Assembly (NCBI GenBank): GCA_965243565.1
Contig: OZ251571.1
Span: 321,523-385,522 of the forward strand
Direction of reading: 5' to 3'
Length of the DNA stretch: 64,000 nucleotides
Origin: Gammaproteobacteria bacterium
GTDB lineage: Bacteria > Pseudomonadota > Gammaproteobacteria > Tethybacterales > Persebacteraceae
Shown: in pieces, positions 1,053 to 32,295 of the stretch
Numbering within the stretch: position 1 is the stretch's first letter
Layout of the letters: every line of letters begins with the position of its first letter
Made by a program: the position numbers and the translations under genes
The notes under the pieces: generated by a model
What the model was told of the DNA's origin: nothing
The model's database searches: none
Seen by the model: only the letters and a program-made list of their open reading frames with translations

Positions 1053-2402
1053 TTGAGGACAATGAACAAACAAGGGTTGGCATTATTTACAGCAACCATT
1101 TATATTTTTAGCATTAATAATAGCTTTGCACAATTAGATACGTCGGCTTATGTAGCAGACAAATTATCCAATAGTACACAATCTGTTATTAATTTTGAAA
1201 ATTCCTATACGTATCAAGGCAATACATTTGTTCAGATGAGTTCATCAGAACAAAATATCGGTGCATATTACTGTAGTGATGCCGAAGTAGTATTTTTACC
1301 GGTTGAAAATCGACAAAATGGTAATATCTATGTCAATGATGCGTATCAGAACTTATACTTATATAGAAAAAATGGCAATGCAGGTATTCTTAGTGATGCC
1401 ATTCGTCTGCGGTATCAAGGTAAGTTAGATTCTTCTTCATTATTAGGAAGACAAGACTGTACTCAAATGCTCACATCGATTGTCCAATACATCGGCAGCA
1501 ATGGCTTAGCAGAAATCGCCTATTCCAGTGCCGATGGCAATGGATCATTGTTACATTATTTTTCAGAAATTAAAACGACATTCGAATATTTATTTTCCAA
1601 TATTGTGGTTTACCCCAAGGGTGCAGACTATGTCGAAAAATTAGCTGACTGGGCTTTCAATATCCCATTTGGTGCAGGTCAGGTAGAATTAATTACTACT
1701 TCTAGTGAGCTTTTGCAGACAAAAGTTGTACCGATAGCGCGTGAAGCGGGGCAAGTTAAAATTTACACAAGCACCGATTCACCTGAAATGAAAGAATTGC
1801 TTAAAAAAAGTAAGAGCAATCAATTCATTCAATTATCTGATACACAATTAAAATCGCAACGGTTTGCAACTTTAGTATCTCAATTAATAGAGCAAGGGGT
1901 TGATTCTGACATCATATCAGCCACCAATCGATTACCTTCTGTGGACGCAATGGATGACAATGTTTATTCATCTGATGCAATCATATTGGTTAGTCCAAAA
2001 GTGAGCAGTCAAGATGTTGGTGTAGCAATCATTAAATCTGCGATTGGTCAATCAATTTCAACAAACAATACAATTCCAACTGTTGTAAAATCTGTCAAAG
2101 AAACAATTTCAAAAAATGAATTTTATGCTGGAAATGGACAATTATTGTCAACATCATTAAATAATTTTTTAATTGCCAATGGCTATAAAATGATATGGGA
2201 GATAGACTCAGGTGTTGACTGGCGTTTTGATATAGAACAAAAAATCAATGAGAATGGTGTTTTTGTAGAGACGCTAGAAAAAGTCTTAAACAATTTCCCT
2301 GTGCAAGCAGTGATGAGTAGAAACGGGAATACGGTGCGGATTAAAATGCGTCATGCTGACAATGGTAATATTGCAAATAACGTTATTCCATTGATAAACT
2401 AA
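1053..2402 (+). CDS. Secreted or N-terminally anchored protein of unknown function, located immediately upstream of the secretin gene.
   Basis: N-terminal hydrophobic segment 'GLALFTATIYIFSINNSFA|Q' fits a signal peptide or a signal anchor. GGAGG lies about 8 nt upstream of TTG 1053, and ATG 1062 is an alternative start. No recognisable catalytic motif; two Cys residues. Confidence 0.55.
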   Translation: MRTMNKQGLALFTATIYIFSINNSFAQLDTSAYVADKLSNSTQSVINFENSYTYQGNTFVQMSSSEQNIGAYYCSDAEVVFLPVENRQNGNIYVNDAYQNLYLYRKNGNAGILSDAIRLRYQGKLDSSSLLGRQDCTQMLTSIVQYIGSNGLAEIAYSSADGNGSLLHYFSEIKTTFEYLFSNIVVYPKGADYVEKLADWAFNIPFGAGQVELITTSSELLQTKVVPIAREAGQVKIYTSTDSPEMKELLKKSKSNQFIQLSDTQLKSQRFATLVSQLIEQGVDSDIISATNRLPSVDAMDDNVYSSDAIILVSPKVSSQDVGVAIIKSAIGQSISTNNTIPTVVKSVKETISKNEFYAGNGQLLSTSLNNFLIANGYKMIWEIDSGVDWRFDIEQKINENGVFVETLEKVLNNFPVQAVMSRNGNTVRIKMRHADNGNIANNVIPLIN

Positions 2403-2428
2403 AGAGACTTTATAAGGAGATATAAGTA

Positions 2429-3958
2429 GTGATGAACAAAATTACATTATGTGCTTTCATGTCAATGTCAGTATTAATTTCAGGTTGTGTCAGCACAACA
2501 GATAATAGCGCGGATATTCTTGAATCTACCAACGTTATAGTTGAGAAGATGGACAAAGAAATTACTACCAAAGTCGAACAAGAAAGCATTCGAAAATCGG
2601 TCGTTTTTGAAGAAGAATCCACTAAACAAACATCACATTACACCAAAGTAAGTGTACCTAAAAATCCAGTTGATATCAATATAACGAATAAAGTACCCTT
2701 TGGCTTTATATTAGAATCAGTGGCAGCAGATTGGGGTTGGTCTGTGCAGTATGCTCAAGATGTTGACACTTCGATTCCCATTGCATTAAGAATCAATAAT
2801 ATTGATGTCATTGATGCGATGGAAGATATCGCTGGGTTGGCAGGTTACACGGTGATTATAGATAAAAAATTACGTCGATGCACTGTTGCTAGTACAGCAA
2901 CATGGACATTCTTATTGCCAGCCAATGTAACTGATACATTAGCATGGAATTATTCTGTTGGAGGATCTCCATCAGCATCAAGTGAGGAAAGTAGTGGAGG
3001 GCTAGAAGGAATTTCAACTGATAGTACCATTACAGGTAGCACCACAACGGATGGAGAAACGGTAATCAATTTTATTGAAAGTTCTATAAATGCAGGAACT
3101 GGTGAAGCCGCAATTATTTCCAATATTCCAAGTCTGGGCGTAATGTTGGTAACTGGTAATATGGCGCAGCTAAAACGAGCTGAGAAAATAATTACACGAA
3201 TGGTTGATGAAGTTTCAACAAGAGTTGAAATTAACGTTGCTATTGTTGAAATTTCTTTGGAAGATACTTTTCAGTTAGGTGTAAGATGGGAAGACGTGTT
3301 AAGAGGTAATTTCGCTTCCAGTTCACTAGGAGAACTTGTAGGTACTAATGCAACCGCATCAGCATCTTACGTAACGGACGATAATATATCATTTGTATTA
3401 GAAGCACTAAAGAAAAGAACAGATTATAGTATTGTTAGTCGCCCCAACCTATTGATTGATAATCATACACCAGCAGATTTGAGTGATTCACGATCAATTC
3501 CATATATATCTGAAATTGAACAATCTACAACTGATGGCGTAACAACGACAACAGCAACCACAGCTTCAGCAATTGACGGATTGAAATTATCAGTTCTTCC
3601 TCATGTATTGGCGGGAGGAAACCTTGTTCAACTGAAATTAGTGCCATTTTTTGGTGTGATTCCTGAGTACAATGAAATAAATTTTGGACTTGGTGGTGAA
3701 GTACTTTCTCTTAATTTACCAACTCAATCAAATAAACAGGCATTCATTTCAGTTACAGTTGAAAGCGGTCAAACATTGGTATTAGCAGGTAATCGTTATA
3801 GCAATACTAGAAAAAGCAACAGTGGACTACCCTATGTTTCAACGCCATTAACCGATACGACATCTGATACCACCGATGTTACTGAATTAGCAATAATTAT
3901 AAATACAAGAATAATTCTACCACCACCTATTAACGTTATTTTAGATAAATCTTTATAA
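2429..3958 (+). CDS. Outer-membrane secretin with a lipoprotein signal, resembling the type IVb pilus secretins TcpC/BfpB.
   Basis: Lipobox 'LISGC' at the N-terminus. The secretin core starts at 'VEINVAIVEISLEDTFQLGVRWE'. The C-terminus 'GLPYVSTP...TELAIIINTRIILPP' matches the canonical secretin tail '...ELLIFITPRII'. Confidence 0.8.
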   Translation: MMNKITLCAFMSMSVLISGCVSTTDNSADILESTNVIVEKMDKEITTKVEQESIRKSVVFEEESTKQTSHYTKVSVPKNPVDINITNKVPFGFILESVAADWGWSVQYAQDVDTSIPIALRINNIDVIDAMEDIAGLAGYTVIIDKKLRRCTVASTATWTFLLPANVTDTLAWNYSVGGSPSASSEESSGGLEGISTDSTITGSTTTDGETVINFIESSINAGTGEAAIISNIPSLGVMLVTGNMAQLKRAEKIITRMVDEVSTRVEINVAIVEISLEDTFQLGVRWEDVLRGNFASSSLGELVGTNATASASYVTDDNISFVLEALKKRTDYSIVSRPNLLIDNHTPADLSDSRSIPYISEIEQSTTDGVTTTTATTASAIDGLKLSVLPHVLAGGNLVQLKLVPFFGVIPEYNEINFGLGGEVLSLNLPTQSNKQAFISVTVESGQTLVLAGNRYSNTRKSNSGLPYVSTPLTDTTSDTTDVTELAIIINTRIILPPPINVILDKSL

Positions 3959-3992
3959 TCCATTTTTTAAATTAAAACAGGAATATAAATTA

Positions 3993-5273
3993 ATGAGCAA
4001 AAGCGAAAAGTTGATATTTTGGGTTGCTGAGGGCATTAATGACCGAGTAAGTGACAACAACGATGGCGATGATGTTGACGTTGATGAAACTGTAGAAGAA
4101 CAATCTGAATTTTTTTGGCAATGGGATACTCAAAATAACCTAGAACAAATAAAACGATCAGACTTAAGATTAAACAAAAATACGGAAATACTGAGGATAA
4201 GTTCTGACGACATTCTTTTTAATTCCAAAGTCAGTAAACTTAAAAAGCTGATTGGATCCGAGTTTTATTCGGCTTCTTGGAAGAAAAACAAACTGGTATC
4301 AGGTTTTGTTGCTAGTGATTCTGATGAAACCATAATGGAAAAGGCAACAGTTATACCAGATGGTTTATTGTCGATAGACAAGACAGATGTCCCTGATATA
4401 CAAAATGAGCAGCTTCACGCATTACACGTAATTGTTTGGTATTTTGATAGCAGCACTATTTACATATCTTTATTATTAAATAGTATGCGTCAAGGTGCTC
4501 AGGTTACGGAATGGCGACAAGTGCAGCATACTGCAGCAGTAACTGCTACTAATTCACTTAATGCCTTAGTCGATTCTGCTGTTAAAATCAGTGGTATTGA
4601 AGTATCAAGCATGGTAATTAGCTGTGCTATTATTTATTTTGGGGCAAGTGATACTCACTTTAGTGAAGCGGGTGAGGGATTAAAAGTAATCCATGATCGT
4701 ATAACAGAAGACATTAAAGAATTTGGCTTTGCAAAAGCTTTTATGTCAGAGCCTGAAAGTTTTTTAAACATTTGGGCAAATAATAAATTATGGAAGGCTG
4801 AGTATAAAACCACCAAATATTCTATTTTAAATATACCTCAATCGACGGTAATGACGATTATGATAGCAGGAATGTTCTCTGGGTTTCTCTTTTTTTCTGC
4901 TAATGGTGTAATTTCTTTTTTTGATTATAGGGCCACCAACGAAAAAATTGAAAAGGTGCAAGCAGATGCTCAACGGGAAACAGAAAAACTACTACAGCTG
5001 AGTAGAGAAAACATCCAATTGTATATTTCTCAATATACAATGCGAGCACAAGAGGCTACGAAATTTTCTGAATTGTTGTTTTATAAAGGTTTAGAATACA
5101 CTATAGAAGCAGAAGGTAGTAGGTGGGAGGCAACTTCTGAATTACCCAAGGATATCTCTAAAGTGGAAGAAATTAGAAGCCTATTAGCGAATATTGAAGG
5201 TTGTACAACAGTTTTTGATCAAAATGATAATTTACTAGAGAGTGGTAAGGTGACAATAGTATGCGAATTCTAA
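3993..5273 (+). CDS. Bitopic inner-membrane assembly protein with GspL/BfpC-like topology: acidic cytoplasmic N-domain, single TM, periplasmic coiled-coil.
   Basis: No signal peptide. A single hydrophobic helix 'VMTIMIAGMFSGFLFFSANGVISFF' sits near residue 290. Its position between secretin and ATPase matches L-like partners of GspE-family ATPases. Assignment is by topology and context only. Confidence 0.4.
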   Translation: MSKSEKLIFWVAEGINDRVSDNNDGDDVDVDETVEEQSEFFWQWDTQNNLEQIKRSDLRLNKNTEILRISSDDILFNSKVSKLKKLIGSEFYSASWKKNKLVSGFVASDSDETIMEKATVIPDGLLSIDKTDVPDIQNEQLHALHVIVWYFDSSTIYISLLLNSMRQGAQVTEWRQVQHTAAVTATNSLNALVDSAVKISGIEVSSMVISCAIIYFGASDTHFSEAGEGLKVIHDRITEDIKEFGFAKAFMSEPESFLNIWANNKLWKAEYKTTKYSILNIPQSTVMTIMIAGMFSGFLFFSANGVISFFDYRATNEKIEKVQADAQRETEKLLQLSRENIQLYISQYTMRAQEATKFSELLFYKGLEYTIEAEGSRWEATSELPKDISKVEEIRSLLANIEGCTTVFDQNDNLLESGKVTIVCEF

Positions 5274-5827
5274 GTAAGTGGACAATTATATTATTGATAC
5301 TTCTATTAATGGGTAGCGGGTGGTCGTACTATAAATGGCAAAAACCCAAGAGAATAGAGGCAGAGCAACAGCTTCAAACAGAATATAAAAAATATAAAAG
5401 GCATAAAAGTGTAGCTGAAAGATTTAGTAAAAGCATTGAGTCATCGGAGTTAAATATTGATGAAGATAATAAAAATTACAAAAATTTCAGATTTTCATCA
5501 GAAACAAGTCATTTTGACTTTCGTTTGAAATTGTATGATGCTTTGAATGAAAAAATAAAAGATATTGGCCTTGAAGAATTTAAATTAATAGAAACATCCG
5601 AGCAAGTAGGGTCCCCTAGATCTCAGAATTTACCAAAAATACATAAAACTTATGCGACAGAATACTACTTTTCTATTGAAGGTGAGGCTAGTTATGGACA
5701 AGTAGTTGCTTTTATTTTGAAAAAATTACCAGATTTACCAGTGGCAGTAACTCGAATAAAAAAAGACAAAGAGAAGTTTAAAATTAATTTTGTTGTTTGG
5801 CGAATAGAACAAGATGGTGCAAATTGA
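5261..5827 (+). CDS. Small bitopic protein with an N-terminal TM helix, GspM/PilO-like by topology.
   Basis: 'WTIILLILLLMGSGWSYY' is an N-terminal TM helix followed by a roughly 160-aa periplasmic region. Start and stop overlap the neighbouring genes (4-nt and 14-nt overlaps), indicating translational coupling. Confidence 0.35.
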   Translation: MRILSKWTIILLILLLMGSGWSYYKWQKPKRIEAEQQLQTEYKKYKRHKSVAERFSKSIESSELNIDEDNKNYKNFRFSSETSHFDFRLKLYDALNEKIKDIGLEEFKLIETSEQVGSPRSQNLPKIHKTYATEYYFSIEGEASYGQVVAFILKKLPDLPVAVTRIKKDKEKFKINFVVWRIEQDGAN

Positions 5828-7655
5828 AGCGAAAGATTCAAAGTCTTCAACAGAAATAAGTAAAGAAGTCATCAACTTTTATGTTGATGAAGGTATTCGT
5901 TCTTATATAATAGAAGCAGCAGCCAGACGTGCTTCATGGAAAAAAACAGGTGAAAGAGGGTTTGAAGATACACTTGTAGAAATGCTTGGTGCAGGAGCTT
6001 CTTCTGTTTTAAAAGCCATTGCAAAACGTTGGAGTATTCCTTTTGTAGATGAACTTCAACCACCGGGAGAGTTATTAAGTGTTATAGAAGACTCAAAACT
6101 ATTCAATAAAGATGGTTTTATTTCTATTTATAATGGCGAATACGTGCCATTTCGCACCAACGGCAATACTCTAGATCTTATATGTAGTAGCCGTCGATCG
6201 CGTGATAAAGGAATAAATGACTTTATCCGTTTACGTTTGGTTAACGAAGAGCATATTAATGTTACAACTTCTTTGGCAAGTAAAGCACTTATAACAAAAG
6301 CCTTCCATCTTTATTTTTCAGATGGCTCAAGAGAATTGAACGGTGCATTGCGAAAAATGGAAGCTATGCTTCTTGCAGGGCAAGATTTTTCAGATTACGA
6401 TATAGCCGAAGCGGTGGTTTTTTTGTTTGCAAGAGCGGCTTATTCTGGAGCAAGTGATGCCATGATATTTGTAACAGAAACGTCGGCTCTATACAAACTA
6501 AAAATTTCAGGTGTTGCTCTATTGGCTGCAGAAACTGAACCAGTTGTTTTGGCTGCTATATTAAGAGTACTTGTTAATGTATTTGCGGGTGAAAATGACA
6601 GTTCTTTGGACGAAAGTCCACAAGAAACATTAATTGATTTTAACGATGACCATATGAGCAAAAGTGGTAATATAGACAAACGCTCAAGACTGATGTTAGA
6701 GCGAGCAAAAGGGTTATTAGGAGGTTATCGTTTTCGTTTACAATTAGCAAAGCCACAGCCTAGAACATCGGATGGTGTTTATGCAGTATTTCGTGTCCTT
6801 AAAAAAGAAGCGTCTAACGCATCGCTATCGAAATTAGGCTATGGGAGCAATACGCCACTTTTAAAAACGGCAGTATGTAGAAAAGAAGGGCTAATACTTT
6901 TTGTTGGTACGACTGGTTCTGGTAAAACCACTGGTGCTGACGCAATGGTTGGTGAAGTTGACCCGATTAGACGGTGGGTTTATACAATTGAAAATCCAAT
7001 TGAATTCCAACATCCTTTGTTTATGCAGCATGAGGTTAGAGGGGGAAGCGAAGAATATTTAAAAATTATTAAGTCATTCTTACGATCTAGTCCAGATGTT
7101 TGCTTTTTTGGAGAAACGCGCGAGGCAGAAGTAGCACTTCGCCTTTGTGAGTTAGCCTTAACCGGAAGTTTGGTTATAAGTACCTTACATGCACCCGACG
7201 CAGTGTCTGCCATACAAAGAATGAGAGCGTGGGGCATTGATAACAACAGTATAAGCGAAACATTGATTTTAATTGTTGGTCAACGTTTATTTCCTAGAAT
7301 TTGTGTCCATTGTTCGGAGCCTATTTCTGGAGAGTTCGGTAAAAAAATACATGAATTGGTTAAAAATTTAAGAGATGATTTAAAAGAAATCGTCATGACG
7401 AGTGACGTTGTTAAAAAAGCCAACGAAGAAGGTTGTAAACATTGTTTTTATACTGGGTATAGTGGTCAGTGGTTGGTCTATGAAATGTTGCCTGTTAACG
7501 CTGAGTTACGTGCTAAAATTGTAGCAGGTGACGCGCCTGATCAGATGCGACGATTTTTACATAGAGAACAAGATATGTATATAGGGATTGCAAGAGGCGT
7601 TGGTCATGGTATACTAGATGTTGAAAGTGCGTTACCAGAACTATTAGGAGCTTAA
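5814..7655 (+). CDS. Type II/IV secretion assembly ATPase of the GspE/PilB/TcpT family.
   Basis: Walker A 'GTTGSGKTT', Asp box 'YTIENPIEF', Walker B 'DVCFFGETRE', His box 'LVISTLHAPDA'. Tetracysteine Zn motif 'CVHCSEP...CKHC'. About 350 aa of N-terminal extension precede Walker A. Confidence 0.9.
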   Translation: MVQIEAKDSKSSTEISKEVINFYVDEGIRSYIIEAAARRASWKKTGERGFEDTLVEMLGAGASSVLKAIAKRWSIPFVDELQPPGELLSVIEDSKLFNKDGFISIYNGEYVPFRTNGNTLDLICSSRRSRDKGINDFIRLRLVNEEHINVTTSLASKALITKAFHLYFSDGSRELNGALRKMEAMLLAGQDFSDYDIAEAVVFLFARAAYSGASDAMIFVTETSALYKLKISGVALLAAETEPVVLAAILRVLVNVFAGENDSSLDESPQETLIDFNDDHMSKSGNIDKRSRLMLERAKGLLGGYRFRLQLAKPQPRTSDGVYAVFRVLKKEASNASLSKLGYGSNTPLLKTAVCRKEGLILFVGTTGSGKTTGADAMVGEVDPIRRWVYTIENPIEFQHPLFMQHEVRGGSEEYLKIIKSFLRSSPDVCFFGETREAEVALRLCELALTGSLVISTLHAPDAVSAIQRMRAWGIDNNSISETLILIVGQRLFPRICVHCSEPISGEFGKKIHELVKNLRDDLKEIVMTSDVVKKANEEGCKHCFYTGYSGQWLVYEMLPVNAELRAKIVAGDAPDQMRRFLHREQDMYIGIARGVGHGILDVESALPELLGA

Positions 7656-7662
7656 AAAATAT

Positions 7663-8904
7663 ATGTCTAATCAACGTCCAGGAGTAAAAGGTGACTATTA
7701 TACTTATACCGGAAAAAATTTAGATGGTGAAAAAGAATCAGGTATGGTTTTTGCAACATCGGTTGCCTTGGCTAAGCGATCTGCTGCTAAACGTCTTTTG
7801 TCTGTTCAATCAATATTTAAAGACCCAGTAGCAAATATAGCTTGGAATTTGGGAGATGGTTATTCCAAAGAACAAGTTGCGCGTATGTTTCGTGTTATTG
7901 GAGACAACCTCGAAAGAGGGTCATCTTTGCCCGAAAGCATTTCATTGGCTCGACTGTTTGTAAGCGATCCATATTTACGTTGTGCTTGTTTTAACATACT
8001 AGATCTTATGTCAAGCGGTAAGTCTTTATCGGCTGCTATGGCTGCATCACATTTTAGTGTTGCAGATTGTACTATTGTGGCATCTGTCAGAGGTGGTGGT
8101 GGTGGAGACGCAAATCAAGGAGGCTACGCTAATGCGTTTAGAATTCGTGCGCATGCTTTGGAATTCGAGGCAAAAGGAGAAAAAGAATTAAATCAAGCAT
8201 TAGTTCCATTTATTATCTTTTTGATATTTATTATTGTTATGGTATATATACTGTTGTTTGTAATGGGTAAGCATTCTGGTGATATGTTAAGCGGTGCAAT
8301 ACCCAAGAGAAATCAAATAGGTTTTGTCGGGGGGTATATTAACTTTTTGCAGGATCTCCAAGAAAACATAGGGCTATATACTACTATATATTTTACGTTT
8401 GGAGCGGGGATTATTTTCCCTTTATTTGTAAAGCAACTGCGTTATAAAATGATATCATTCGCTTTTCCATCATTTTCAAAATTTAAATTAGAGCTAGATC
8501 AATACAAGACTTGGCAATTATGGCAGTTACTTCGAATTTCAGGTGTGGATAATGTCCGTATTTTTGCATTAACAGCTAAAATTGTTGATAACCCACTAAT
8601 AATGCAGCAAAATAAAGCGATAATGGAGCAAACCAGACGAGGAAGAGGGCTTGCTGTAATCGTTCGAGATGTGATAAAATCAGCACGATTAAGAGAGCAG
8701 CTAACCTCCGTTCTTGAAGGAAAGTCAGCAGACAAAGGCATGGATATAGTATTATCATTACTACAATTACAAGTAAACGAATACAAAAATAGAGCAGTCT
8801 TATTATTTGGTGGTATGACAAAAGGTATTGTCGCACTTGCTCTGGTTAGTATGATGCTAATGATTATTGGGCCCTCTTTTATGCTAATGGCCAATATAAA
8901 TTAA
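7663..8904 (+). CDS. Inner-membrane platform protein of the GspF/PilC/TcpE family.
   Basis: 413 aa. Three predicted TM segments ('LVPFIIFLIFIIVMVYILLFV', 'LYTTIYFTFGAGIIFPLFV', 'IVALALVSMMLMIIGPSFMLMA') separated by cytoplasmic domains. It sits directly after the ATPase. Confidence 0.7.
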   Translation: MSNQRPGVKGDYYTYTGKNLDGEKESGMVFATSVALAKRSAAKRLLSVQSIFKDPVANIAWNLGDGYSKEQVARMFRVIGDNLERGSSLPESISLARLFVSDPYLRCACFNILDLMSSGKSLSAAMAASHFSVADCTIVASVRGGGGGDANQGGYANAFRIRAHALEFEAKGEKELNQALVPFIIFLIFIIVMVYILLFVMGKHSGDMLSGAIPKRNQIGFVGGYINFLQDLQENIGLYTTIYFTFGAGIIFPLFVKQLRYKMISFAFPSFSKFKLELDQYKTWQLWQLLRISGVDNVRIFALTAKIVDNPLIMQQNKAIMEQTRRGRGLAVIVRDVIKSARLREQLTSVLEGKSADKGMDIVLSLLQLQVNEYKNRAVLLFGGMTKGIVALALVSMMLMIIGPSFMLMANIN

Positions 8905-8950
8905 AGAATTTTTAATAAAACAAAAACTATAAAAAAAAAAGGAGAAAATA

Positions 8951-9517
8951 ATGAAAATTATAAATAAAATAAGCATAATCAAAGGTCGCTTGCGTCAAGT
9001 AGGTTTTACACTGGTGGAACTTGCTTTGGTGGTTGCTGCTTTGGCGATTATTTCAGTTAGTGCTATTGTTGTAAGTGATAGTGTGTTAAGCAATGCACGT
9101 TCATCGTCAATGATTAGTCAAATTAACACAGTACAGACATCTGCCGAATTGGCAAGAGTACATACCAGTTGTAGGGCTTTAAAATTGAATTTCTTAGTAA
9201 CTGATGCAAACGCTGCCGATAATTCATGTGGTAAAGCCAACCTTGCAGGCTGGGAAGGTCCATATATAAGGAATGCAATTATTTTGACTACTGGTATAAT
9301 GAGTCTTGAGACTGTAGCCGCTGGTGCGGAGATGGAAATGAAAGTGGTAGGTGGGATTGCAATTCTTGAGGTGGAAGCAGGCTCAAATGACGTTTTAGAT
9401 GGCATAGTGGCTAGCGTTTGTCCAGATAATCTAGCAGCTTCCTCTCTGGCTAATATTAGTGCTACGAAAACTTGTTTTAGTACCGGTAGTGTAGTAAATC
9501 TCTATATGTCTCAATAA
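8951..9517 (+). CDS. Major type IV prepilin.
   Basis: Leader 'MKIINKISIIKGRLRQVG' followed by 'FTLVELALVVAALAII' gives Gly-1, Phe+1 and Glu+5. Four Cys residues allow two disulfides including a C-terminal D-region pair. Strong SD 'AAGGAG' 7 nt upstream. Hairpin terminator downstream. Confidence 0.8.
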   Translation: MKIINKISIIKGRLRQVGFTLVELALVVAALAIISVSAIVVSDSVLSNARSSSMISQINTVQTSAELARVHTSCRALKLNFLVTDANAADNSCGKANLAGWEGPYIRNAIILTTGIMSLETVAAGAEMEMKVVGGIAILEVEAGSNDVLDGIVASVCPDNLAASSLANISATKTCFSTGSVVNLYMSQ

Positions 9518-9565
9518 TGGTATCTGATTTGTAATTTTACTAAAACAATATTCATTAAAATTTGG

Positions 9566-9600
9566 TTTAGAAGTATTTTTTAATACTTCTAAACTTTTTT
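9566..9600 (+). terminator. Rho-independent terminator/attenuator after the major pilin gene.
   Basis: Perfect 12-bp inverted repeat tttagaagtatt / aatacttctaaa (9566-9577 / 9582-9593) with a 4-nt loop, followed by TTTTTT at 9595-9600. The stem is AU-rich. Confidence 0.45.
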
Positions 9601-9613
9601 AACAGATAAAGCA

Positions 9614-10522
9614 ATGAAATTTAAGCAAAAAGGTGTAACACTGGTTGAACTTTCTTTGGGGCTAGTTGCAACAGCTGTAATTGTGGGGGCGTTATTCCCA
9701 CAATTAGCGCTTGTATTTAGACATATTGAAAGCATACACAACGATAAATTTACGTCACATATTCGTCAAATACTTGTAGAATTTTACCGAAGAAATCCAG
9801 AGGATTTTGTTTCTAATGGAGCTCCCGCTGCCACAGTAGTGGATGTTGTTGATATTAATGAGTTTGCAACAGGAGCATTGGATGATGTCAGTGTTGATTT
9901 TAATAATGAAACATGGCATTATGTGGCTTGCTCAACAAGTGGTCAAATTACGGTACAGCCAGGGGGCGTTCTTAATTTCTGTGATATCATAGGCTACCGT
10001 AACGATGCTCCTCTTACTCTTAATTTAAACAATCGAAATTTGAATTTTTGGAATGGTCTAGTAAACGACGATACAATTGAGAGATTCGAAATAATTTCTG
10101 GACGTTCAATTATTCAAGATCAAATCGACATTACCCGACAGCGTGTAGAAAGGGTGAGAGAGAATTTAGAACAACACGCGGACACACTATTTCGCACAGC
10201 AAAACAAAGAGCATATAGAGTAAATCGTTATGTGGACCATTCAGTAGAAGATACTTATAAAACCAATTATGACTATGATGGTCGAGCAATTTTTGATCGA
10301 AGTCCCGCTATTAATCATGGCGAACGAGCGGCGCTTGGCTTTAATACTAATGATCTTATAACTCCCTTATCAACTGATCTTATTCAAATTGATAATACAT
10401 CAGCAAATATAAGATCGAATGATCATGGGCATGACCCTCCATATACTGCAGAAGTTTTTGTTATTATAAATGCGGGTGGTCTTGCTATCAGAGTGAGTAG
10501 TTTAGCAGTCACAAAAAACTAG
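9614..10522 (+). CDS. Large minor pilin-like protein, paralog 1 of 3.
   Basis: Prepilin N-terminus 'MKFKQKG|VTLVEL' with Glu+5. 302 aa. Shares the Cys-pair block 'W.YV.CS....FCDI.GYRN' and the C-terminal 'DLITP...IDNT...PYTAEVFV' block with the ORFs at 10602 and 13106. Confidence 0.7.
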   Translation: MKFKQKGVTLVELSLGLVATAVIVGALFPQLALVFRHIESIHNDKFTSHIRQILVEFYRRNPEDFVSNGAPAATVVDVVDINEFATGALDDVSVDFNNETWHYVACSTSGQITVQPGGVLNFCDIIGYRNDAPLTLNLNNRNLNFWNGLVNDDTIERFEIISGRSIIQDQIDITRQRVERVRENLEQHADTLFRTAKQRAYRVNRYVDHSVEDTYKTNYDYDGRAIFDRSPAINHGERAALGFNTNDLITPLSTDLIQIDNTSANIRSNDHGHDPPYTAEVFVIINAGGLAIRVSSLAVTKN

Positions 10523-10601
10523 CTAAAAAAATAGGTAATTATTGATAAATTACATATAATAGTACTTAAAAGATACAAATCTAAATATTAATTTATTAAC
10601 A

Positions 10602-11528
10602 ATGAAAATTCAGATTAAAAATCAAAGAGGTGTAACACTGGTTGAAATAGCCATATCTATTGTGCTATTATCTGTGCTTATAACTGTGCTGTTTAATGCG
10701 CTGGGTAATGCAATAGGAAGTATTCAGTATATTAAAAACGAAAAATTTTCACAACATATGCAAAAAACGGTTCTTGAATATTACAAACAAAATGTTTCAG
10801 ATCCTGCTGTAAATCCGCGGACGAGTCAATTCATGGTTGGTGCAGGTAACCCTGCGCCAGTACACATACCTGCAGCTGCTATAAATCCATTTTCATCTGG
10901 CGTTGTTACAGATGTTGCTATTGATTTTAATAACAATAGATGGTGGTATGTGAACTGCTCGTTTAATAATCCTAATAACGTTATAGCAGTAGGGGAGCAA
11001 AATTGGCGCTTTTGTGACATAGTTGCTTACAGAAATGAGAATCAATTGCCTGTAGCCGATTTAGTAATGACAAATATTGCGTTTTGGAATAATAGATTAA
11101 ATGCCAATGTAATTGATGACTACATTATTATATCTGGTAGTAATGTAGTACATGAGGCTGTTTCACAAACACGCAAATCTGTTAAGAGAGTTCGTGATTT
11201 ATTAGAAAATTATTACGTGCTACTTGTTTCGCATACAGAAGAACAACCTTATTTTATTAATCGATTTGCAGGTCATGATGGTTTTAATAAGCAAAGTCAA
11301 ACTTCATATGATGTACGATCGGCATTAAATTCAGACAATGTACTAGATAATAATGAATTATCTGCTATAGGTCTTGTGCCTAATGACTTAATAACACCGT
11401 TCGGAAGCATACAAATTGATAACACAAATAACAATAGGTTCCCTTATACAGCACAGGTGTTTGTTAATTTTCAAGATGTTAATGCGGACACTCTTAAAAT
11501 CAGTACACTTGCTGTTTCTAAACTTTAA
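10602..11528 (+). CDS. Large minor pilin-like protein, paralog 2 of 3.
   Basis: 'MKIQIKNQRG|VTLVEI' with Glu+5. 308 aa. Conserved blocks 'WWYVNCS...RFCDIVAYRN' and 'NDLITPFGSIQIDNT...PYTAQVFV'. Confidence 0.7.
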   Translation: MKIQIKNQRGVTLVEIAISIVLLSVLITVLFNALGNAIGSIQYIKNEKFSQHMQKTVLEYYKQNVSDPAVNPRTSQFMVGAGNPAPVHIPAAAINPFSSGVVTDVAIDFNNNRWWYVNCSFNNPNNVIAVGEQNWRFCDIVAYRNENQLPVADLVMTNIAFWNNRLNANVIDDYIIISGSNVVHEAVSQTRKSVKRVRDLLENYYVLLVSHTEEQPYFINRFAGHDGFNKQSQTSYDVRSALNSDNVLDNNELSAIGLVPNDLITPFGSIQIDNTNNNRFPYTAQVFVNFQDVNADTLKISTLAVSKL

Positions 11529-11540
11529 TAGGAAAAAATT

Positions 11541-12215
11541 ATGAAAAAAAACATTATAAAATTAATAAGTATTGGCTTGGTTTTTTCTGCACAGGTACAT
11601 GCAGAAGAAGTTGATTTATTTGATTACTGCAAGCAAATGGCAAAAGGATTCGCGATATTAGAGGTTAAAACTCAATTAAACTCAAAAGATGATTTAAATA
11701 CCTGCCGTCAATATATTGCTGAATTAGGAGAATTACGTAAACAATTTATCGTCATTGAAGAGTTCGATAGTTTGATTGATGAAGAGGAAGCCGAAGAAGC
11801 AATAGTTGAAGAAGATTATGTCACAGTTGATGATGCTATTTTACTAATACAGAATGAAATAAATAGTCTAAAATCTAAAATTGATAAAGATATAAGCAAG
11901 CAATTAGAAAAAATTAAAAGTGAGCAGCAACCAATTATTACTAATATTGAACAAAATCCAAATGTATCGCCTGTTGAAGAGCAAAAGCAACGGACAGTAG
12001 CAATACAACAACCTAAATCGTTTGAAATGGTTACATTCGTTGGACAGTTGCGTCAAGGGGGAGAGGATAAATACATAATCCAGGTGGATGGCAACCTAAT
12101 CCAATTAACTGAACAAGAAATGTACAAAGGATTTGCTTTTACAAAACAAGGTGACAATTATTATTTGGGAGATATAAAAGTGGCGGATAATCTAGAAACA
12201 TTGGAATCTAACTAA
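11541..12215 (+). CDS. Secreted periplasmic protein of unknown function, paralogous to the ORF at 14153.
   Basis: Signal peptide 'MKKNIIKLISIGLVFSAQVHA'. Conserved 'YC...C..Y.AEL.ELR' block, an acidic coiled linker, and a C-terminal 'YIIQVDGNLIQLTEQEMYKG' block shared with the 14153 ORF. Confidence 0.5.
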   Translation: MKKNIIKLISIGLVFSAQVHAEEVDLFDYCKQMAKGFAILEVKTQLNSKDDLNTCRQYIAELGELRKQFIVIEEFDSLIDEEEAEEAIVEEDYVTVDDAILLIQNEINSLKSKIDKDISKQLEKIKSEQQPIITNIEQNPNVSPVEEQKQRTVAIQQPKSFEMVTFVGQLRQGGEDKYIIQVDGNLIQLTEQEMYKGFAFTKQGDNYYLGDIKVADNLETLESN

Positions 12216-12267
12216 ATATTAGATTGTAGTTTAATGCGACATTATCATTTCATTCAGGAAGCGATTA

Positions 12268-13131
12268 GTGATTAATTCTAGGAGACACAATTATAACTAT
12301 GTACATAGTCAAAAAGGATTGGCATTATTATCGCTGATTCTTTTATTGGGTATAGTTTTAGGTGTAGCGTTGGTTGCATTTTATAATGTAATCGCAGAAG
12401 AGCGTTTAGCACTCCAAAATAATACCACTGATGAAAAATTACAAACTGTAGTTGATGACACAGAGGCTTATTATAGGCATAATCCTGATTTCACTGCACC
12501 CGGTTTTGCAGCTAATGTCTGTTCTTTTGCACTGGCAGTTAGTCCTCCGTTTGGATGTGCATTATCGCCGACTCAATTTTGGGGACGAGAAGGCGAGGTT
12601 ACATTTTTTAATATCCTTATTTTTGAACCTAATGCTGATCTTGCTGATAATGCAACGGTGCCAGTGGCTGCGATTAATGGAGAACAGATACAGTTAAACG
12701 CACAGCGAAATCTAAGAGAGCAACTTCGTAGAATCGTCTCAGTCATAGAAATAAACCATCAGCAAATGCACCAAATCAATGCTGGTGGTCATGCAGATAC
12801 TGGTGTTAATTTGTATTGTTTGAATGGGAACTCTCAAATAGGTCTATTGGGGTGTGAAAGCGATTGGACACCCCTACCTGCTGCTTTCTTAAGTGCGTAC
12901 TTAGCACCAGGAGATCAGGTATCTCCGTTCGGTACTCCTATTGTATACCAGACAGCAGGGACTGTCACCTTAACTGATGTCATTGACAACTATACAATCA
13001 GACCGAATGATTCTTATGATGTTGTGGCAGCCGTAGTTTCTGCAACTACACCTTGGGATAATAATGGGGTGGCTTTTCGAGAATGGGCTGTGGCACTAAA
13101 GGGAAATGCATACCATGATCTCGCGCAATAA
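12268..13131 (+). CDS. Pilin-like protein lacking Glu5, GspK/PilX-like in that respect.
   Basis: Basic leader ending 'SQKG', then the hydrophobic helix 'LALLSLILLLGIVLGVALVAF' with Ser rather than Glu at +5. 287 aa. Embedded among the other pilin-like genes. Confidence 0.4.
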   Translation: MINSRRHNYNYVHSQKGLALLSLILLLGIVLGVALVAFYNVIAEERLALQNNTTDEKLQTVVDDTEAYYRHNPDFTAPGFAANVCSFALAVSPPFGCALSPTQFWGREGEVTFFNILIFEPNADLADNATVPVAAINGEQIQLNAQRNLREQLRRIVSVIEINHQQMHQINAGGHADTGVNLYCLNGNSQIGLLGCESDWTPLPAAFLSAYLAPGDQVSPFGTPIVYQTAGTVTLTDVIDNYTIRPNDSYDVVAAVVSATTPWDNNGVAFREWAVALKGNAYHDLAQ

Positions 13132-14107
13132 AGGTATTACGCTTATAGAAATGGCAATAACTATTGCCGTACTTACTGTTTTAACTGGCGCAGTATTAGT
13201 GTCAGTGCCATTTGATTTGTTAAGTAATCTTCGTCAAAAAAATCATAAAGATTCTGTTGGTATTGTTTTGGATGCCTACTATCAAGTAAATATTGGAAAT
13301 TTAGTTTTTCCCACTGCTGCGGACGTGATTCTAACTACTATTAGTTTTGATGAGATAGAAGCCATTGGGAGGAATCTTAAACTTAATCAAGAAATAAATT
13401 TTAGTCAAGATTCTGGTGGGAGAAATTGGTTTTATGCGCAATGTTCAACATCAGGATTTTTGGATCATGCTGACATCTTTGTTTCTATAGATTCTTCCAC
13501 TAAAATATCATATTGTGGTCTTGTTGCTTATACAACGGGTGAAGCGGGGGCACCACTTGCGAATGATGTTATTAAAAACAAAACTATAGCAGATTGGCAA
13601 AATGCAACAGTGAATCCAGCAATCGAAGATTATGTTATTGTCGAAGGTCGAAGAGGTGTGAGTGCTGAAATAAACAAAACATCTGATAAATTAAATGCAG
13701 TTGTAACAGCATTTGAAGAGTACTATAGACTTTTAGATTCGAATGACCCTGTCGCAGGTATCGCAATTAATCGATTTTCTCATACACCATCACAGAATTA
13801 TGATTTACAGAGAAGAACGATTGATAAAATATCAATTTTACGCAATACTGAAGTAAAAGCTAATGATGATCATTTACTTACACGAAGTTATCAGGCTATA
13901 ATGAAAATTTCAGACGAGACTCTTAATACAGGGTTTGGCGAAATACAATTTGATAATGGCTCCACCAGCATACGAACATCTTCTCACACAACACCGGCTT
14001 ATAAGGTGTACCAAGGACCACCCTATACAGTTGAGTTATGGGTAGAGTTATCCGGGAATGGTGCTATAATGCGGAAGACGGCATCATCTAAAATTTACGG
14101 GTATTAA
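13106..14107 (+). CDS. Large minor pilin-like protein, paralog 3 of 3.
   Basis: 'MISRNKG|ITLIEM' with Glu+5; the start is probably the ATG at 13115. Conserved 'NWFYAQCSTSGF...SYCGLVAY' and 'GFGEIQFDNGSTSIRTS...PPYTVELWV' blocks. Confidence 0.7.
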   Translation: MHTMISRNKGITLIEMAITIAVLTVLTGAVLVSVPFDLLSNLRQKNHKDSVGIVLDAYYQVNIGNLVFPTAADVILTTISFDEIEAIGRNLKLNQEINFSQDSGGRNWFYAQCSTSGFLDHADIFVSIDSSTKISYCGLVAYTTGEAGAPLANDVIKNKTIADWQNATVNPAIEDYVIVEGRRGVSAEINKTSDKLNAVVTAFEEYYRLLDSNDPVAGIAINRFSHTPSQNYDLQRRTIDKISILRNTEVKANDDHLLTRSYQAIMKISDETLNTGFGEIQFDNGSTSIRTSSHTTPAYKVYQGPPYTVELWVELSGNGAIMRKTASSKIYGY

Positions 14108-14152
14108 TGGTATTAATACAATAAAAAATACAAATTTTAAAGGGGTTTTACT

Positions 14153-14872
14153 TTGAATAAATTAAAATTAATAGTTTTATTTTCTTTGCTATTAACAGGC
14201 TCTGTACAAGCAGAGAGTATTGATATCGAAGTATTATCAGTAGAGTACTGTAAAAAATTTCGTGAGGGAGCAACCGTTAATGTTGATAACAATATTCCTG
14301 ATCCAAGTAGTGGCAAAACAGAAATGGCTACAAGTTTTGACGTTACCATCTCTGAAATGGTTAAATGTAAAAAATACTTTGCCAATCTTACCGAACTTAG
14401 GCAGACAATACAGGATGTTAATAGTGATACTGACACAGAATTAGGACGAACTGACGATGTTTTACAAAATAATAATGTTATTTCGCTAGAAAGTTTCAAA
14501 GAAGAAATGGCGTACGAACTTGCTTTATTTGAGGAAAAATATTTTTCGCAAAAGAAAATCGAAATAGAAAATTATGTGCAAAAAATTAACTACGAAGCGC
14601 GTCAGTTAGCGCGTAACAGCAATACCGTTAGAAATACCGTCACTGCGGCCGTTAATCAAACAGCTGATGTTGCCAGCAACAGAGTGCAAACAAAAAAAGA
14701 AGCACCACTATTCTTATTACAAGGGACTTTTCGTCAAAGTGGTACTGAATACTATATCATTAAGAGCTTTGATCAATTGATAACCTTAAAAGAGGGTGAT
14801 TCTTTTAAGGGGAAAAAATTACTTAAAAACCCAAAAGGTCTATATTTTGATGATTATCGTATCATTCAATAA
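14153..14872 (+). CDS. Secreted periplasmic protein, paralog of the 11541 ORF.
   Basis: Signal peptide 'MNKLKLIVLFSLLLTGSVQA'. Shared Cys-pair and C-terminal 'YYIIKSFDQLITLKEGDSFKG' blocks. Confidence 0.5.
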   Translation: MNKLKLIVLFSLLLTGSVQAESIDIEVLSVEYCKKFREGATVNVDNNIPDPSSGKTEMATSFDVTISEMVKCKKYFANLTELRQTIQDVNSDTDTELGRTDDVLQNNNVISLESFKEEMAYELALFEEKYFSQKKIEIENYVQKINYEARQLARNSNTVRNTVTAAVNQTADVASNRVQTKKEAPLFLLQGTFRQSGTEYYIIKSFDQLITLKEGDSFKGKKLLKNPKGLYFDDYRIIQ

Positions 14873-17784: not shown

Positions 17785-19656
17785 ATGAAAGACAGTAAAC
17801 ATTTATATATTGATTACTTTAATTTAAAAGAACCACCTTTTAAGATAACGCCAACCACGAGCTATTTTTATGGCGGTGGAAAAAGAGGAGAAATTTTACA
17901 CGCATTGTTATATGCCATTAATTCTGGTGAGGGGATTATGTTGCTAACTGGTGAGGTGGGTAGTGGCAAAACCATGATACTTAGAACACTCGTGGATCAG
18001 CTAAGCGAAAAAACAGATATTATTTATATTGCCAATCCCAGTTTGTCCGGTAGTGAAATTTTATACAATATATGTGAAGAGTTAGGATTACAATCTGAAG
18101 AAAAAAAGCCCGATACTGTTCGTATATTACAAAACCACTTGATTCAAAGGCACCAAGAGGGTTATCGTGTGGTTGCTTTTATTGATGAAGCACAAGCAAT
18201 GCCGGATGAATCACTTGAAGAGATTCGATTATTGTCTAATTTGGAAACAAGTCGTGATAAATTATTACAAATTGTATTGTTTGGACAACCAGAACTAGAA
18301 GAAAAACTGTCAAAACAACATTTGCGACAATTGCGCGAACGTATCACGGTGGCGCTTAAAATAAAACCATTTACCAAAGAGGATATAAAAGAATATATAT
18401 CAACGCGTTTGCATGCCGCTGGACACGATGGCAAACAATTATTTACCAATGACGCGTATCGAATCATCTTTGCTGTTTCGAAAGGTATTTCTCGTCGAAT
18501 TAATGTATTGGCGGATAAAACGTTACTATCAGCGTTTGCCCGTGGCTCACTCATTGCAGAAAAAATTGATGCCAAGATGGCTGCACGTGATGTGAGTTAT
18601 GGCAAGCTCTTGTATCGGTCGGAACAAAACCGTCTTTTTTCTAAATTTATTACCATTGGTTGTACGGTAGGGTGTTTATTAATTATTACCGTATTTTCGT
18701 TTATTTATTTTGGTGAACAGGTCACAGCATCATTTGCTGAAGAGCCAGTGGCAGACAAACCCGTACAGAGTAAAGTCGTAAAAAAAGATACAGTAATACA
18801 AAACACCATTGAAATCGCACTGAATGAAATTATTAATGCCCAAGAAAAACAGTCTGAGCTTGAAGTAGCAGTTGTTATTGAAGAGGAATCCGAGCCAGTT
18901 ATACAACCCGATGTAGAGGTGGTAATTGTTGAGGAATCCGAGCCAGTTATACAACCCGATGTAGAGGTGGTAATTGAAGAGGAATCCGAGCCAGTTATAC
19001 AACCCGATGTAGAGGTGGTAATTGTTGAGGAACAACCTAAAGTAGTTTCTAAGAAAGTTGAATCTGTTAAACAGCAAACCAAACCGGTAAATATTGGTAA
19101 ACAAATGTCTCAAACTATTGTACAGTTACAACAACAAAAAGAGGTTGCTTTAAGTGGAGAACAACTAGCACTTGAGATTTCCAAACATGCCGAAGAACAC
19201 ACGGATGGACCTCAAGTAGAAGGTGGACAAACGGAATGGCAAATAGTTGTTAAAAAGAAAACAACTGAATCATTGGGTATTGTAGAAAATAGTCAGTGGG
19301 ATTGGATGCCTGCATCAAGTTATTTGCGTAGCCGCTTGAACGCAACGCAAACATGGATAAAAAACAACCCTGACCAGCAGCAATATACCTCACGACTAAT
19401 AACGGTGTCGCAAGAGCGCGCTATATTTTTAGAAAAATTCCTTCGTTACTTTGCCGATTATTACCCTATTCGCAATGTATTGGTTTATCCCATCCAATTA
19501 AAAAGTGGTAAGAAATTCGTTGTCAATTTTGGTGTTTATCCATCGCAAAGTGATGCTGAAGTTTTTATTAATAATATCCCCCGTTATTTTACGGGTGGCG
19601 AGCCTTATGCTCAAGAAATTAGTTCTATTGTAAAAGAATCACAGGATTTATGGTAA
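17785..19656 (+). CDS. ExeA/GspA/MshM-family AAA+ ATPase with a TM segment and a periplasmic C-terminal SPOR-like domain.
   Basis: AAA_22-type Walker A 'LLTGEVGSGKTMILRTL'. TM helix 'FITIGCTVGCLLIITVFSFIYFG'. C-terminal 'VVNFGVYPSQSDAEVFINNIP' resembles a SPOR fold. The periplasmic linker contains an acidic tandem repeat. Confidence 0.75.
   Translation: MKDSKHLYIDYFNLKEPPFKITPTTSYFYGGGKRGEILHALLYAINSGEGIMLLTGEVGSGKTMILRTLVDQLSEKTDIIYIANPSLSGSEILYNICEELGLQSEEKKPDTVRILQNHLIQRHQEGYRVVAFIDEAQAMPDESLEEIRLLSNLETSRDKLLQIVLFGQPELEEKLSKQHLRQLRERITVALKIKPFTKEDIKEYISTRLHAAGHDGKQLFTNDAYRIIFAVSKGISRRINVLADKTLLSAFARGSLIAEKIDAKMAARDVSYGKLLYRSEQNRLFSKFITIGCTVGCLLIITVFSFIYFGEQVTASFAEEPVADKPVQSKVVKKDTVIQNTIEIALNEIINAQEKQSELEVAVVIEEESEPVIQPDVEVVIVEESEPVIQPDVEVVIEEESEPVIQPDVEVVIVEEQPKVVSKKVESVKQQTKPVNIGKQMSQTIVQLQQQKEVALSGEQLALEISKHAEEHTDGPQVEGGQTEWQIVVKKKTTESLGIVENSQWDWMPASSYLRSRLNATQTWIKNNPDQQQYTSRLITVSQERAIFLEKFLRYFADYYPIRNVLVYPIQLKSGKKFVVNFGVYPSQSDAEVFINNIPRYFTGGEPYAQEISSIVKESQDLW
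18880..19032 (+). repeat. In-frame tandem repeat of about 45-51 nt, three copies, encoding '(E)EESEPVIQPDVEVVI(V)', inside the ExeA-like gene.
   Basis: The unit 'gaggaatccgagccagttatacaacccgatgtagaggtggtaatt' is directly repeated three times, with gaa/gtt insertions between copies. Confidence 0.8.
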
Positions 19657-19683: not shown

Positions 19684-21000
19684 CTATAGTATGTAGTTGG
19701 TTTTATCGGTATCAACCGTTAATGCTTTGAGTTTGGATTGTACAAACTCTTTGTCTATATTGATGGTTTTTCCTTTGTATAATTCAGCATCAAATGAATA
19801 GTCTTCGAGTACGCGCTCTAGTAAAGTGTATAGACGACGCGCGCCAATGTTTTCGTTGTGTTCGTTGACATTCCATGCAGTTTCTGAAATTTCTTGTATT
19901 GCATCATCACTAAACTCTAAGTTAACCTTTTCGGTTTTCATGAGTGCTTGGTATTGGCGAATTAAACAGGCTTGTGTACGCGTTAAAATTTGTTTAAAAT
20001 CATCAACTGTCAATGCGGTTAGTTCGACTCTTAAAGGAAATCGTCCTTGAAGTTCAGGGATAAGGTCAGAAGGGCGATTAAAATGAAACGCCCCACTGGC
20101 AATAAATAGTATATGATCGGTATGTACATGTCCATGGCGAGTCGATACCGTCGTGCCTTCTACTAATGGTAGTAAATCGCGTTGTACACCGTGGCGAGAA
20201 ATATCACTACCACGACCATCGCTATCGGCAATTTTGTCGATTTCGTCAATAAAGATAATACCATTTTCTTCAACTTGTTCAATGGCGATCTCTTTAATTT
20301 CGTTGATGTCAAGCAGGTCTTGAATCTCTTCGTCGGTACACACTTTAAATGCGTTTTCGACGGTCATTTTTTTTATTTTTAGCTTGTCTTTGTTAATGTT
20401 TTGAAAAATCCCTTGCATTTGTTGGGTGATTTCTTCCATTCCTGGTGGCGATAGTACTTCTACTTGTGTGGAAGTATTGACTTCGATTTCGATTTCTTTA
20501 TCATCTAACTTACCTGATTTAATTTTTTCGCGAAATTTTTCGCGAGTGGTCGTGCTGGTCTTGGTGTCTTCGTCTTTATTAGAAGGTAGTAAGGCATTAA
20601 GAATACGTTCTTGTGCCAATGCTTCAGCTTGTTCGCGAAATTTTTCGCCATACTCGTTTTGTACATTTTCGATGGCAATATCGACTAAATCACGAACAAT
20701 AGATTCGACATCTCGCCCGATATAACCAATTTCGGTAAATTTGGTAGCCTCTACCTTTATAAAAGGCGCATCGATAAGACGTGCCAACCGCCGAGAAATT
20801 TCAGTTTTACCAACTCCAGTGGGACCTATCATGAGGATGTTTTTGGGTATGATTTCATCGCGTAATGATGATTCAACACGCATTCGTCGCCAACGCCAAC
20901 GCAAAGCGACAGCAACCGTTTTTTTGGCTCCGTTTTGCCCAACGATGTACTTATCGAGATGGCTGACAATTTTTTTAGGAGTTAATCGACGTTCATTCAT
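19684..21000 (-). CDS. hslU: ATP-dependent protease ATPase subunit HslU.
   Basis: '[10 protein letters not shown]' Walker A, I-domain, 'IDEIDKI' Walker B. Adjacent to hslV. Confidence 0.95.
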
Positions 21001-32294: not shown

Positions 32295-32295
32295 A

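Follow-up and report, generated by a model that had tools for sequence, protein, structure and literature searches.

What kind of filament is built from a protein that opens with a leader of type IVb length, continues with the Phe of type IVa pilins and is encoded just upstream of a terminator-like hairpin? The question is raised by the open reading frame (ORF) at 8951-9517 on the plus strand of the window, by which we mean the whole stretch of 64,000 nucleotides analysed here (contig OZ251571.1, positions 321,523 to 385,522, from a gammaproteobacterium of the Persebacteraceae). We conclude that this ORF is very probably the gene for the major subunit of a type IV pilus, and it is the 7th of 13 tightly spaced plus-strand genes in the compact operon (1053-14872) that would build the pilus. 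Judged from its position after the platform gene, its strong Shine-Dalgarno (SD) sequence, its small mature size and the pilin fold of its AF2 (AlphaFold2) model, the protein almost certainly has the major-subunit role. The gene and its signals, all on the plus strand, are as follows.

8939..8944, plus strand: SD sequence AAGGAG, with a 6-nt spacer to the ATG at 8951
8951..9517, plus strand: prepilin ORF, predicted major pilin, 188 aa
8951..9004, plus strand: leader peptide MKIINKISIIKGRLRQVG, 18 codons with Gly-1 at the end, read off the sequence
9005..9019, plus strand: predicted mature N-terminus FTLVE, with Phe+1 (9005-9007) and Glu+5 (9017-9019), from the sequence and N_methyl motif matches
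9170..9229, plus strand: Cys74...Cys93 pair flanking the motif T(G/S)C...NSCG, then W.GPY, from conservation in the pilin family
9419..9475, plus strand: Cys157...Cys175 C-terminal pair, a D-region-like loop, invariant in the 6 closest members
9564..9600, plus strand: intrinsic-terminator-like hairpin with a TTTT loop and a T6 tail, dG -15.3 kcal/mol

The prepilin begins with an ATG-encoded Met and reads MKIINKISIIKGRLRQVG↓FTLVELALVVAALAIISVSAIVV (the arrow marks the predicted cleavage site), with Gly at -1, Phe at +1 and Glu at +5 of a hydrophobic helix; five of the 18 leader residues are Lys or Arg. Both the basic leader and the FTLVE behind it had been described in the first-pass annotation of this DNA and are read directly from the sequence. 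An in-frame TAA at 8930-8932 means that no start earlier than the ATG at 8951 is possible, and the sole other in-frame start codon within the leader, a TTG at 8990, would give the five-residue leader MRQVG and lacks a good SD. The Gly-1, the hydrophobic +1 residue, the Glu+5 and the run of about 20 hydrophobic residues are the sequence marks of a type IV pilin with a class III signal peptide, and TIGR02532 scores 17.9 bits on the protein, over its cut-off of 16.3. The predicted mature protein has 170 aa, while the adjacent pilins have about 300. Its AF2 model is a confident pilin fold, with a long N-terminal helix on a beta-sheet ('lollipop'); a Foldseek comparison of the model with the PDB gave no significant match. 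Across the 23 aligned members of the pilin family C74 is invariant and C93 is conserved in at least 90%, and both are invariant in the 6 closest. The C-terminal pair, Cys157 and Cys175, probably forms a disulfide.

The duplex of AAGGAG with the anti-SD has an energy of -8.7 kcal/mol and shares third rank among 55 ORF starts of the window (longest ORFs were used, so that some starts may be mis-set), while the following two minor-pilin genes reach -0.1 and +1.9. The proposal that no other pilin gene has a near-perfect SD is therefore borne out. The orthologous pilin genes on two metagenomic contigs, L003 and L004, also have AAGGAG just 5' of their ATG. Most ORF starts in the window show little or no SD complementarity; the strongest four sites comprise three in the pilus cluster (before 1053, 2429 and 8951) and one before a NifU-like (iscU-type) gene at 26018.

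Downstream of the gene, the arms of the hairpin (9565-9577 and 9582-9594) form a perfect stem of 13 bp plus one G-U pair, followed at once by T6 (9595-9600). The first-pass annotation had placed a 12-bp perfect hairpin with a T-tract immediately after the gene; the perfect stem and the T-tract stand, but the stem is 13 bp long and begins 47 nt past the stop codon. The 96-nt spacer after the pilin gene (9518-9613) has a fold z-score of -4.25, and the hairpin is the sole perfect stem of at least 12 bp with a loop of 3-8 nt in the 64 kb, where first-order Markov simulations of the window give an expectation of 0.03 per sequence. It is not a dispersed repeat. A stable stem-loop with an immediate U-tract, 3' of a stop codon, has the form of an intrinsic (Rho-independent) terminator. 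Rho-independent terminators after major pilin genes, as in pilA-tfpY of Pseudomonas aeruginosa and similar cassettes, have been proposed to attenuate the downstream accessory genes and to set stoichiometry (PMC11841053).

From the strong SD of the pilin gene, the hairpin with its T-tract, the SD-less downstream genes and a spacer in which no promoter-like site was seen, we infer with good support a leaky terminator that would set the ratio of major to minor pilins, as the earlier suggestion of a highly expressed major subunit with partial read-through had it. It is rather unlikely that the hairpin serves mainly as an mRNA-stabilising 3' end or RNase barrier, or as a full terminator, the minor pilins then having a transcript of their own. 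Abundant messages are commonly protected by stable hairpins at their 3' end, and this one, at -15.3 kcal/mol and 47 nt past the stop codon, would be suited to that role. A separate transcript for the minor pilins has no visible promoter to start from in 9518-9613, and the first minor-pilin gene begins only 13 nt after the T-tract, so that any expression of the minor pilins would require some read-through. Stabilisation and attenuation are in any case not mutually exclusive.

The remaining genes of the operon were identified as follows.

1053..2402, plus strand: TcpQ-like periplasmic protein with a signal peptide and a weak C-terminal TcpQ match (PF10671, E 6.8e-4)
2429..3958, plus strand: secretin with the lipobox LISGC (Secretin 64 bits; best PDB match BfpB)
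3993..5273, plus strand: accessory protein, 426 aa, in the position of R64 PilO; no Pfam/NCBIfam match, orthologues in L003 and L004
5261..5827, plus strand: accessory protein, 188 aa, with an N-terminal hydrophobic segment, in the position of R64 PilP; from the sequence, no family match
5814..7655, plus strand: assembly ATPase of the PilB/GspE type with two CxxC pairs (PilF 141 bits, GspE 113, PilB 109, BfpD 64)
7663..8904, plus strand: inner-membrane platform protein of the PilC/GspF family, from a family match
9614..10522, plus strand: large minor pilin, MKFKQKG↓VTLVE, no SD
10602..11528, plus strand: large minor pilin paralogue, ..NQRG↓VTLVE, no SD
11541..12215, plus strand: secreted 224-aa protein, paralogue of 14153-14872 by blastp
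12268..13131, plus strand: pilin-like protein without Glu+5 (..SQKG↓LALLS), orthologue in L003
13106..14107, plus strand: third large minor pilin, ..RNKG↓ITLIE, a paralogue
14153..14872, plus strand: secreted 239-aa protein, final gene of the cluster, paralogue of 11541-12215

The three minor pilins of about 300 aa (9614, 10602 and 13106) have short leaders and Val or Ile at +1, and are 23-35% identical to each other; the AF2 model of the 302-aa one has a pLDDT (predicted local distance difference test) score of 49.6, too low for the fold to be read. The weak TcpQ match of the 1053-2402 protein recurs in its L003 and L004 orthologues. The secretin scores 92.7 bits with MshL and 57.9 bits with PilN-IVB, both under cut-off, and no PilM, N, O or P family match was found among the accessory proteins with Pfam or NCBIfam.

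Because GspE and GspF models give the best scores for the ATPase and the platform protein, the G↓FTLVE cleavage motif is typical of pseudopilins and one pilin-like gene lacks Glu+5, as GspK does, the cluster could be seen as a machine similar to a type II secretion system (T2SS), with the 8951-9517 product as the major pseudopilin (a GspG analogue) of a short periplasmic piston. We find this quite improbable. The pilin has no match to GspG (TIGR01710), and no GspC, L or M family match was found with Pfam or NCBIfam. GspG has about 140 aa and no disulfide, and the mature pilin, with 170 aa and two Cys pairs, is unlike it. The lipoprotein secretin has BfpB as its best match among solved structures and comes with a TcpQ-like partner. 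Finally, related clusters encode a PilT-like retraction ATPase, found inside the cluster in three of four relatives, which argues for a retractile pilus over a secretion pseudopilus; they are also linked to conjugation genes, a setting in which type IV pili stabilise mating pairs (PMC9045228).

The wider family supports the pilus reading by homology and synteny. A word-indexed protein search gave two matches for the pilin, with one pilin relative, four for the ATPase, with two relatives of similar length, and only itself for the minor pilin; public data contain few examples of the pilus system. The two ATPase relatives come from metagenomic contigs of about 74 kb (L003 and L004) that, to judge by their names, may be circular assemblies. 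Their clusters keep the gene order of the window and stand directly 3' of VirB4, VirB8, VirB9 and VirB10 genes. By tblastn against plasmids, the same architecture was found twice, behind VirB9, VirB10 and a transglycosylase on plasmid p3 of Robbsia andropogonis (NZ_CP139167.1) and behind a TraG-N gene on plasmid 2 of Variovorax sp. WDL1 (NZ_LR594690.1); with the pilin as query, tblastn against plasmids gave no match. Orthologues detected by blastp cover most of the cluster genes in L003 and L004, and the secretin, ATPase, platform protein and pilin on the two named plasmids, so that the window cluster belongs with the Robbsia p3 / Variovorax plasmid pilus family by blastp homology across the cluster and by synteny. 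In the window and in the four relatives with full context the pilin gene stands directly 3' of the platform gene, and none of the four related clusters contains a prepilin peptidase. An alignment search for related loci with the ATPase gave one match, at 28%, and alignment of the platform protein against genome and metagenome contigs found nothing.

An exhaustive HMMER search with the pilin gave 72 matches and, taken with the loci above, defines the family, which is marked by T-G-C...(N)S-C-G...W-x-G-P-Y together with the C-terminal Cys pair. The two best non-self matches, the giant repeat proteins P0003 (3750 aa) and P0004 (1791 aa), were set aside as probably a motif coincidence: they match only pilin residues ~90-144 ('SCG..W.GPY'), 37 and 18 times respectively, through a '...DSCG..NLSTWAGPYNF...' unit. 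Among the 23 aligned members Phe is at +1 in 18, and the called leader exceeds 10 residues in 19, a length that depends on unverified metagenomic start codons. Six pilins of the family read as follows.

Window pilin: leader 18, +1 Phe, AAGGAG SD
L001 pilin: leader 35, +1 Phe, no alternative in-frame start
L003 pilin: leader 48, +1 Ile, own AAGGAG SD
L004 pilin: leader 11, +1 Val, AAGGAG SD
Robbsia p3 pilin: leader 36, +1 Phe
Variovorax plasmid 2 pilin: leader 13, +1 Phe

With leaders of 11-48 residues and Phe, Ile or Val at +1 in these six, a type IVb leader joined to a type IVa Phe is a trait of the family and not an anomaly, and the earlier idea of an odd hybrid falls. Long leaders before Phe are known elsewhere too: Streptococcus sanguinis PilE1 and PilE2 have 18-residue leaders (PMC5389465), and in the geopilin chain 7tgg of Geobacter 29 residues precede G↓FTLIE, which makes the combination an established one. 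That the true start is instead the internal TTG at 8990, with a leader of type IVa length (MRQVG) and the long leader an annotation artefact, is highly improbable. In its favour, the TTG is a legal start codon in frame with a weak AAAGG 4 nt upstream, automatic annotation often makes pilin leaders too long, and internal Met codons occur in several family members. Against it, the ATG at 8951 stands at the ideal distance behind a near-perfect SD, one of the strongest in the window, and long leaders that offer no other in-frame start occur in relatives, with 35 residues in L001 and with 48 residues, behind an AAGGAG of its own, in L003.

The closest pilin relative, L001 1-1191 (Logan SRR28167755; 41% identity), lies directly after a truncated paralogous pilin gene. 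The 148-nt spacer between these tandem pilin genes is strongly structured (-43.6 kcal/mol) and has no T-tract, and a third pilin-like start follows; the locus looks like a tandem array of major-pilin variants. On the related, plasmid-like contigs L004 (17756-20966) and L005 (8174-9595), IS605 OrfB / Cas12f-like TnpB genes lie a few kb downstream of the pilus cluster.

Taken as the major subunit of a pilus, the protein would be made and used in the following way. The prepilin would enter the inner membrane through its hydrophobic N-terminal helix, and a prepilin peptidase of the A24 family, encoded outside the cluster and the window, would cut after Gly18 and probably N-methylate Phe19. Polymerisation of the mature pilin of 170 aa, its Glu+5 lying in the core of the filament, would fall to the PilB/GspE-like ATPase and the platform protein, and the filament would leave through the lipoprotein secretin and its TcpQ-like partner. 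Assembly would probably be primed by the minor pilins of about 300 aa, which would also serve as tip adhesins. The strong SD would ensure high translation of the major pilin, and the hairpin with T6 at 9564-9600 would end the majority of transcripts, though not every one, ahead of the minor-pilin genes that lack an SD, giving a high major-to-minor ratio. As for its origin, the operon would belong to a rare, unnamed pilus family found otherwise beside conjugation genes on plasmids, and would here be a chromosomal resident.

Several observations speak against this account. The Pfam N_methyl model scores 17.2 on the pilin, under its gathering cut-off of 21.2. The hairpin stem is A/U-rich, with just 3 G-C pairs. 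No spacer of this kind follows the pilin gene in the four relatives with full cluster context, where the next gene starts after 0-23 nt, and terminator control would thus be specific to the window locus. Lastly, a motif scan and tblastn with R64 PilU, which make a weak test, revealed no prepilin peptidase in the cluster or elsewhere in the window, and Pfam found no Peptidase_A24 domain in the ORFs annotated from 14 to 56379. On the other side, prepilin peptidases are common to several systems, and MSH loci have none of their own (PMC6668835).

The cluster lies in the chromosome. It is flanked by the 3' end of rne on one side and by COX2 (cytochrome oxidase subunit II) on the other, and the remaining annotated ORFs of the window, up to 56 kb, are housekeeping genes; its GC content is 35.7%, against 40.0% in the rest of the window. 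No type IV secretion system (T4SS) gene was found in the same ORFs, and the cluster therefore does not adjoin conjugation genes as its relatives do. The part of the cluster that follows the pilin gene (9614-14872) looks duplicated, with three paralogous minor pilins and two paralogous secreted proteins, while the L003 cluster has one of each.

Further along the window, an ExeA/GspA-like AAA ATPase (17785-19656) is encoded 3 kb downstream of the cluster; its best model, a PEP-CTERM-associated ATPase, scores under cut-off, and it carries about four copies of the tandem acidic repeat VVIVEESEPVIQPDVE, with DNA repeats around 18890-19007. ExeA-type proteins aid secretin assembly in some systems. 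The HslU encoded at 19684-21000 has a best identity of 58% among 185,579 species representatives, with matches spread over several phyla. A DNA methyltransferase ORF (N6_N4_Mtase, 32212-33702) sits between the genes for the large (29373-32294) and small (33762-34856) subunits of ribonucleotide reductase and, as called, shares 83 nt with the end of the large-subunit ORF. There is no tRNA gene in the 64-kb window.

By itself the pilin holds no mechanistic surprise, being a fairly ordinary member of a poorly described pilus subfamily, but the analysis shows which gene is probably the main structural one, and how stoichiometry is likely to be controlled, in an operon that databases label 'hypothetical' or 'type II secretion system protein'. 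Of more interest is the operon family: an unnamed, conjugation-linked pilus type that is present yet unannotated in RefSeq plasmids and chromosomal here. The operon is thereby tied to a little-noticed group of pili that accompany conjugation systems on elements other than the well-studied IncI plasmids. If these pili stabilise mating pairs as those of R64 and TP114 do, the family is relevant to plasmid host range.

A broader proposal, which we put forward only tentatively, is that the operon represents a distinct branch of type IV filaments that travels with conjugation modules on plasmids of diverse Proteobacteria, mixes classical traits and has been domesticated in this genome. Such a branch could combine the type IVb-like compact operon, lipoprotein secretin with TcpQ-like partner and long leaders with the PilB/GspE-type ATPase and G↓F-T-L-V-E site of type IVa and T2SS. 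The universal Gly↓Phe site may have been retained in the pilins of this branch because an element without a peptidase must borrow the housekeeping PilD of its host. The chromosomal copy could then be that of a small-genome (about 1.7 Mb), phylogenetically isolated host, with three tip pilins standing in for a shufflon.

How the locus compares with known systems depends first on the class definitions, by which type IVa pilins have leaders of at most 10 residues, and type IVb pilins have leaders of 13-30 residues and a variable, non-Phe +1 (Met, Leu, Trp, Ser) (PMC9045228). The Phe+1 of the window pilin and its mature size of 170 aa, within the ~150-175 residues of type IVa, point to that class, and the ATPase points to type IVa or T2SS; a leader of at most 10 residues and dispersed machinery of the PilMNOPQ type are lacking. 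On the type IVb side stand the 13-30-residue leader length and the compact operon with its lipoprotein secretin and TcpQ-type partner, without a non-Phe +1, sequence membership of a type IVb family or a dedicated operon peptidase. Leader length and the +1 residue, used as a rule of thumb, are an unreliable classifier of type IVa against type IVb, and Denise et al. made the two pilin profiles interchangeable in their models, the boundary being fuzzy (PMC6668835). A mannose-sensitive haemagglutinin (MSHA) pilus does not fit, with MshL at 92.7 bits against a cut-off of 250, no MshE N-domain found and a different gene order.

Among individual systems, the type IVb pilins TcpA, CofA and BfpA share with the window a leader within 13-30 residues and a BfpB-related lipoprotein secretin with a TcpQ-like partner. 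The window differs in having Phe rather than Met or Leu at +1 and no operon-encoded peptidase; its ATPase scores higher with PilF, GspE and PilB (109-141 bits) than with BfpD (64 bits), and no Pfam/NCBIfam match at E <= 0.1 places the pilin in the PilS, TcpA or bundlin families. The long-leader Phe+1 pilins of S. sanguinis and Geobacter belong to other machineries (dispersed IVa-type genes and, for S. sanguinis, a monoderm host), and their likeness to the window pilin is confined to the N-terminal helix. The pilA-tfpY type cassettes of P. aeruginosa also have a stem-loop with a U-tract right after the major pilin gene, but there the downstream genes are modification or accessory genes and in the window they are minor pilins of the same operon.

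The clusters of Robbsia p3, Variovorax, L003 and L004 are closest in organisation, sharing with the window the gene order, the pilin motif TGC...CG...W.GPY, the C-terminal Cys pair and long, variable leaders with mostly Phe at +1. Identities are low (22-33% for the pilin, 31-43% for the ATPase), and the window copy differs from them in being chromosomal, in having no T4SS gene in the annotated ORFs and no PilT-like ATPase, in its duplicated minor-pilin module and in being alone in carrying a terminator hairpin after the pilin gene.

The thin pilus of the IncI plasmids R64 and TP114 (PilL-PilV, type IVb, with PilS as major pilin) is likewise encoded by a compact operon, and R64 pilN-O-P-Q-R-S-V runs parallel to the window in its secretin, proteins of about 430 aa and about 150-190 aa, ATPase, platform, major pilin and large minor pilin. 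Comparison of the accessory proteins and the pilin with R64 PilO, PilP and PilS by hhalign showed no relationship (PilS probability 1%), a negative that is weak because the profiles are shallow, and the window ATPase is 26% identical to R64 PilQ. The PilS leader of R64, with 23 residues, is long as in the window, but PilS has Trp at +1 where the window pilin has Phe; R64 also encodes its own peptidase PilU and transglycosylase PilT, whereas the window operon has no peptidase. R64 is linked to conjugation, as are the relatives of the window cluster. In R64 the adhesin is varied by a shufflon, whereas the window carries three separate paralogous genes, whose minor pilins may be alternative tip adhesins, the separate genes doing what the R64 shufflon does by recombination.

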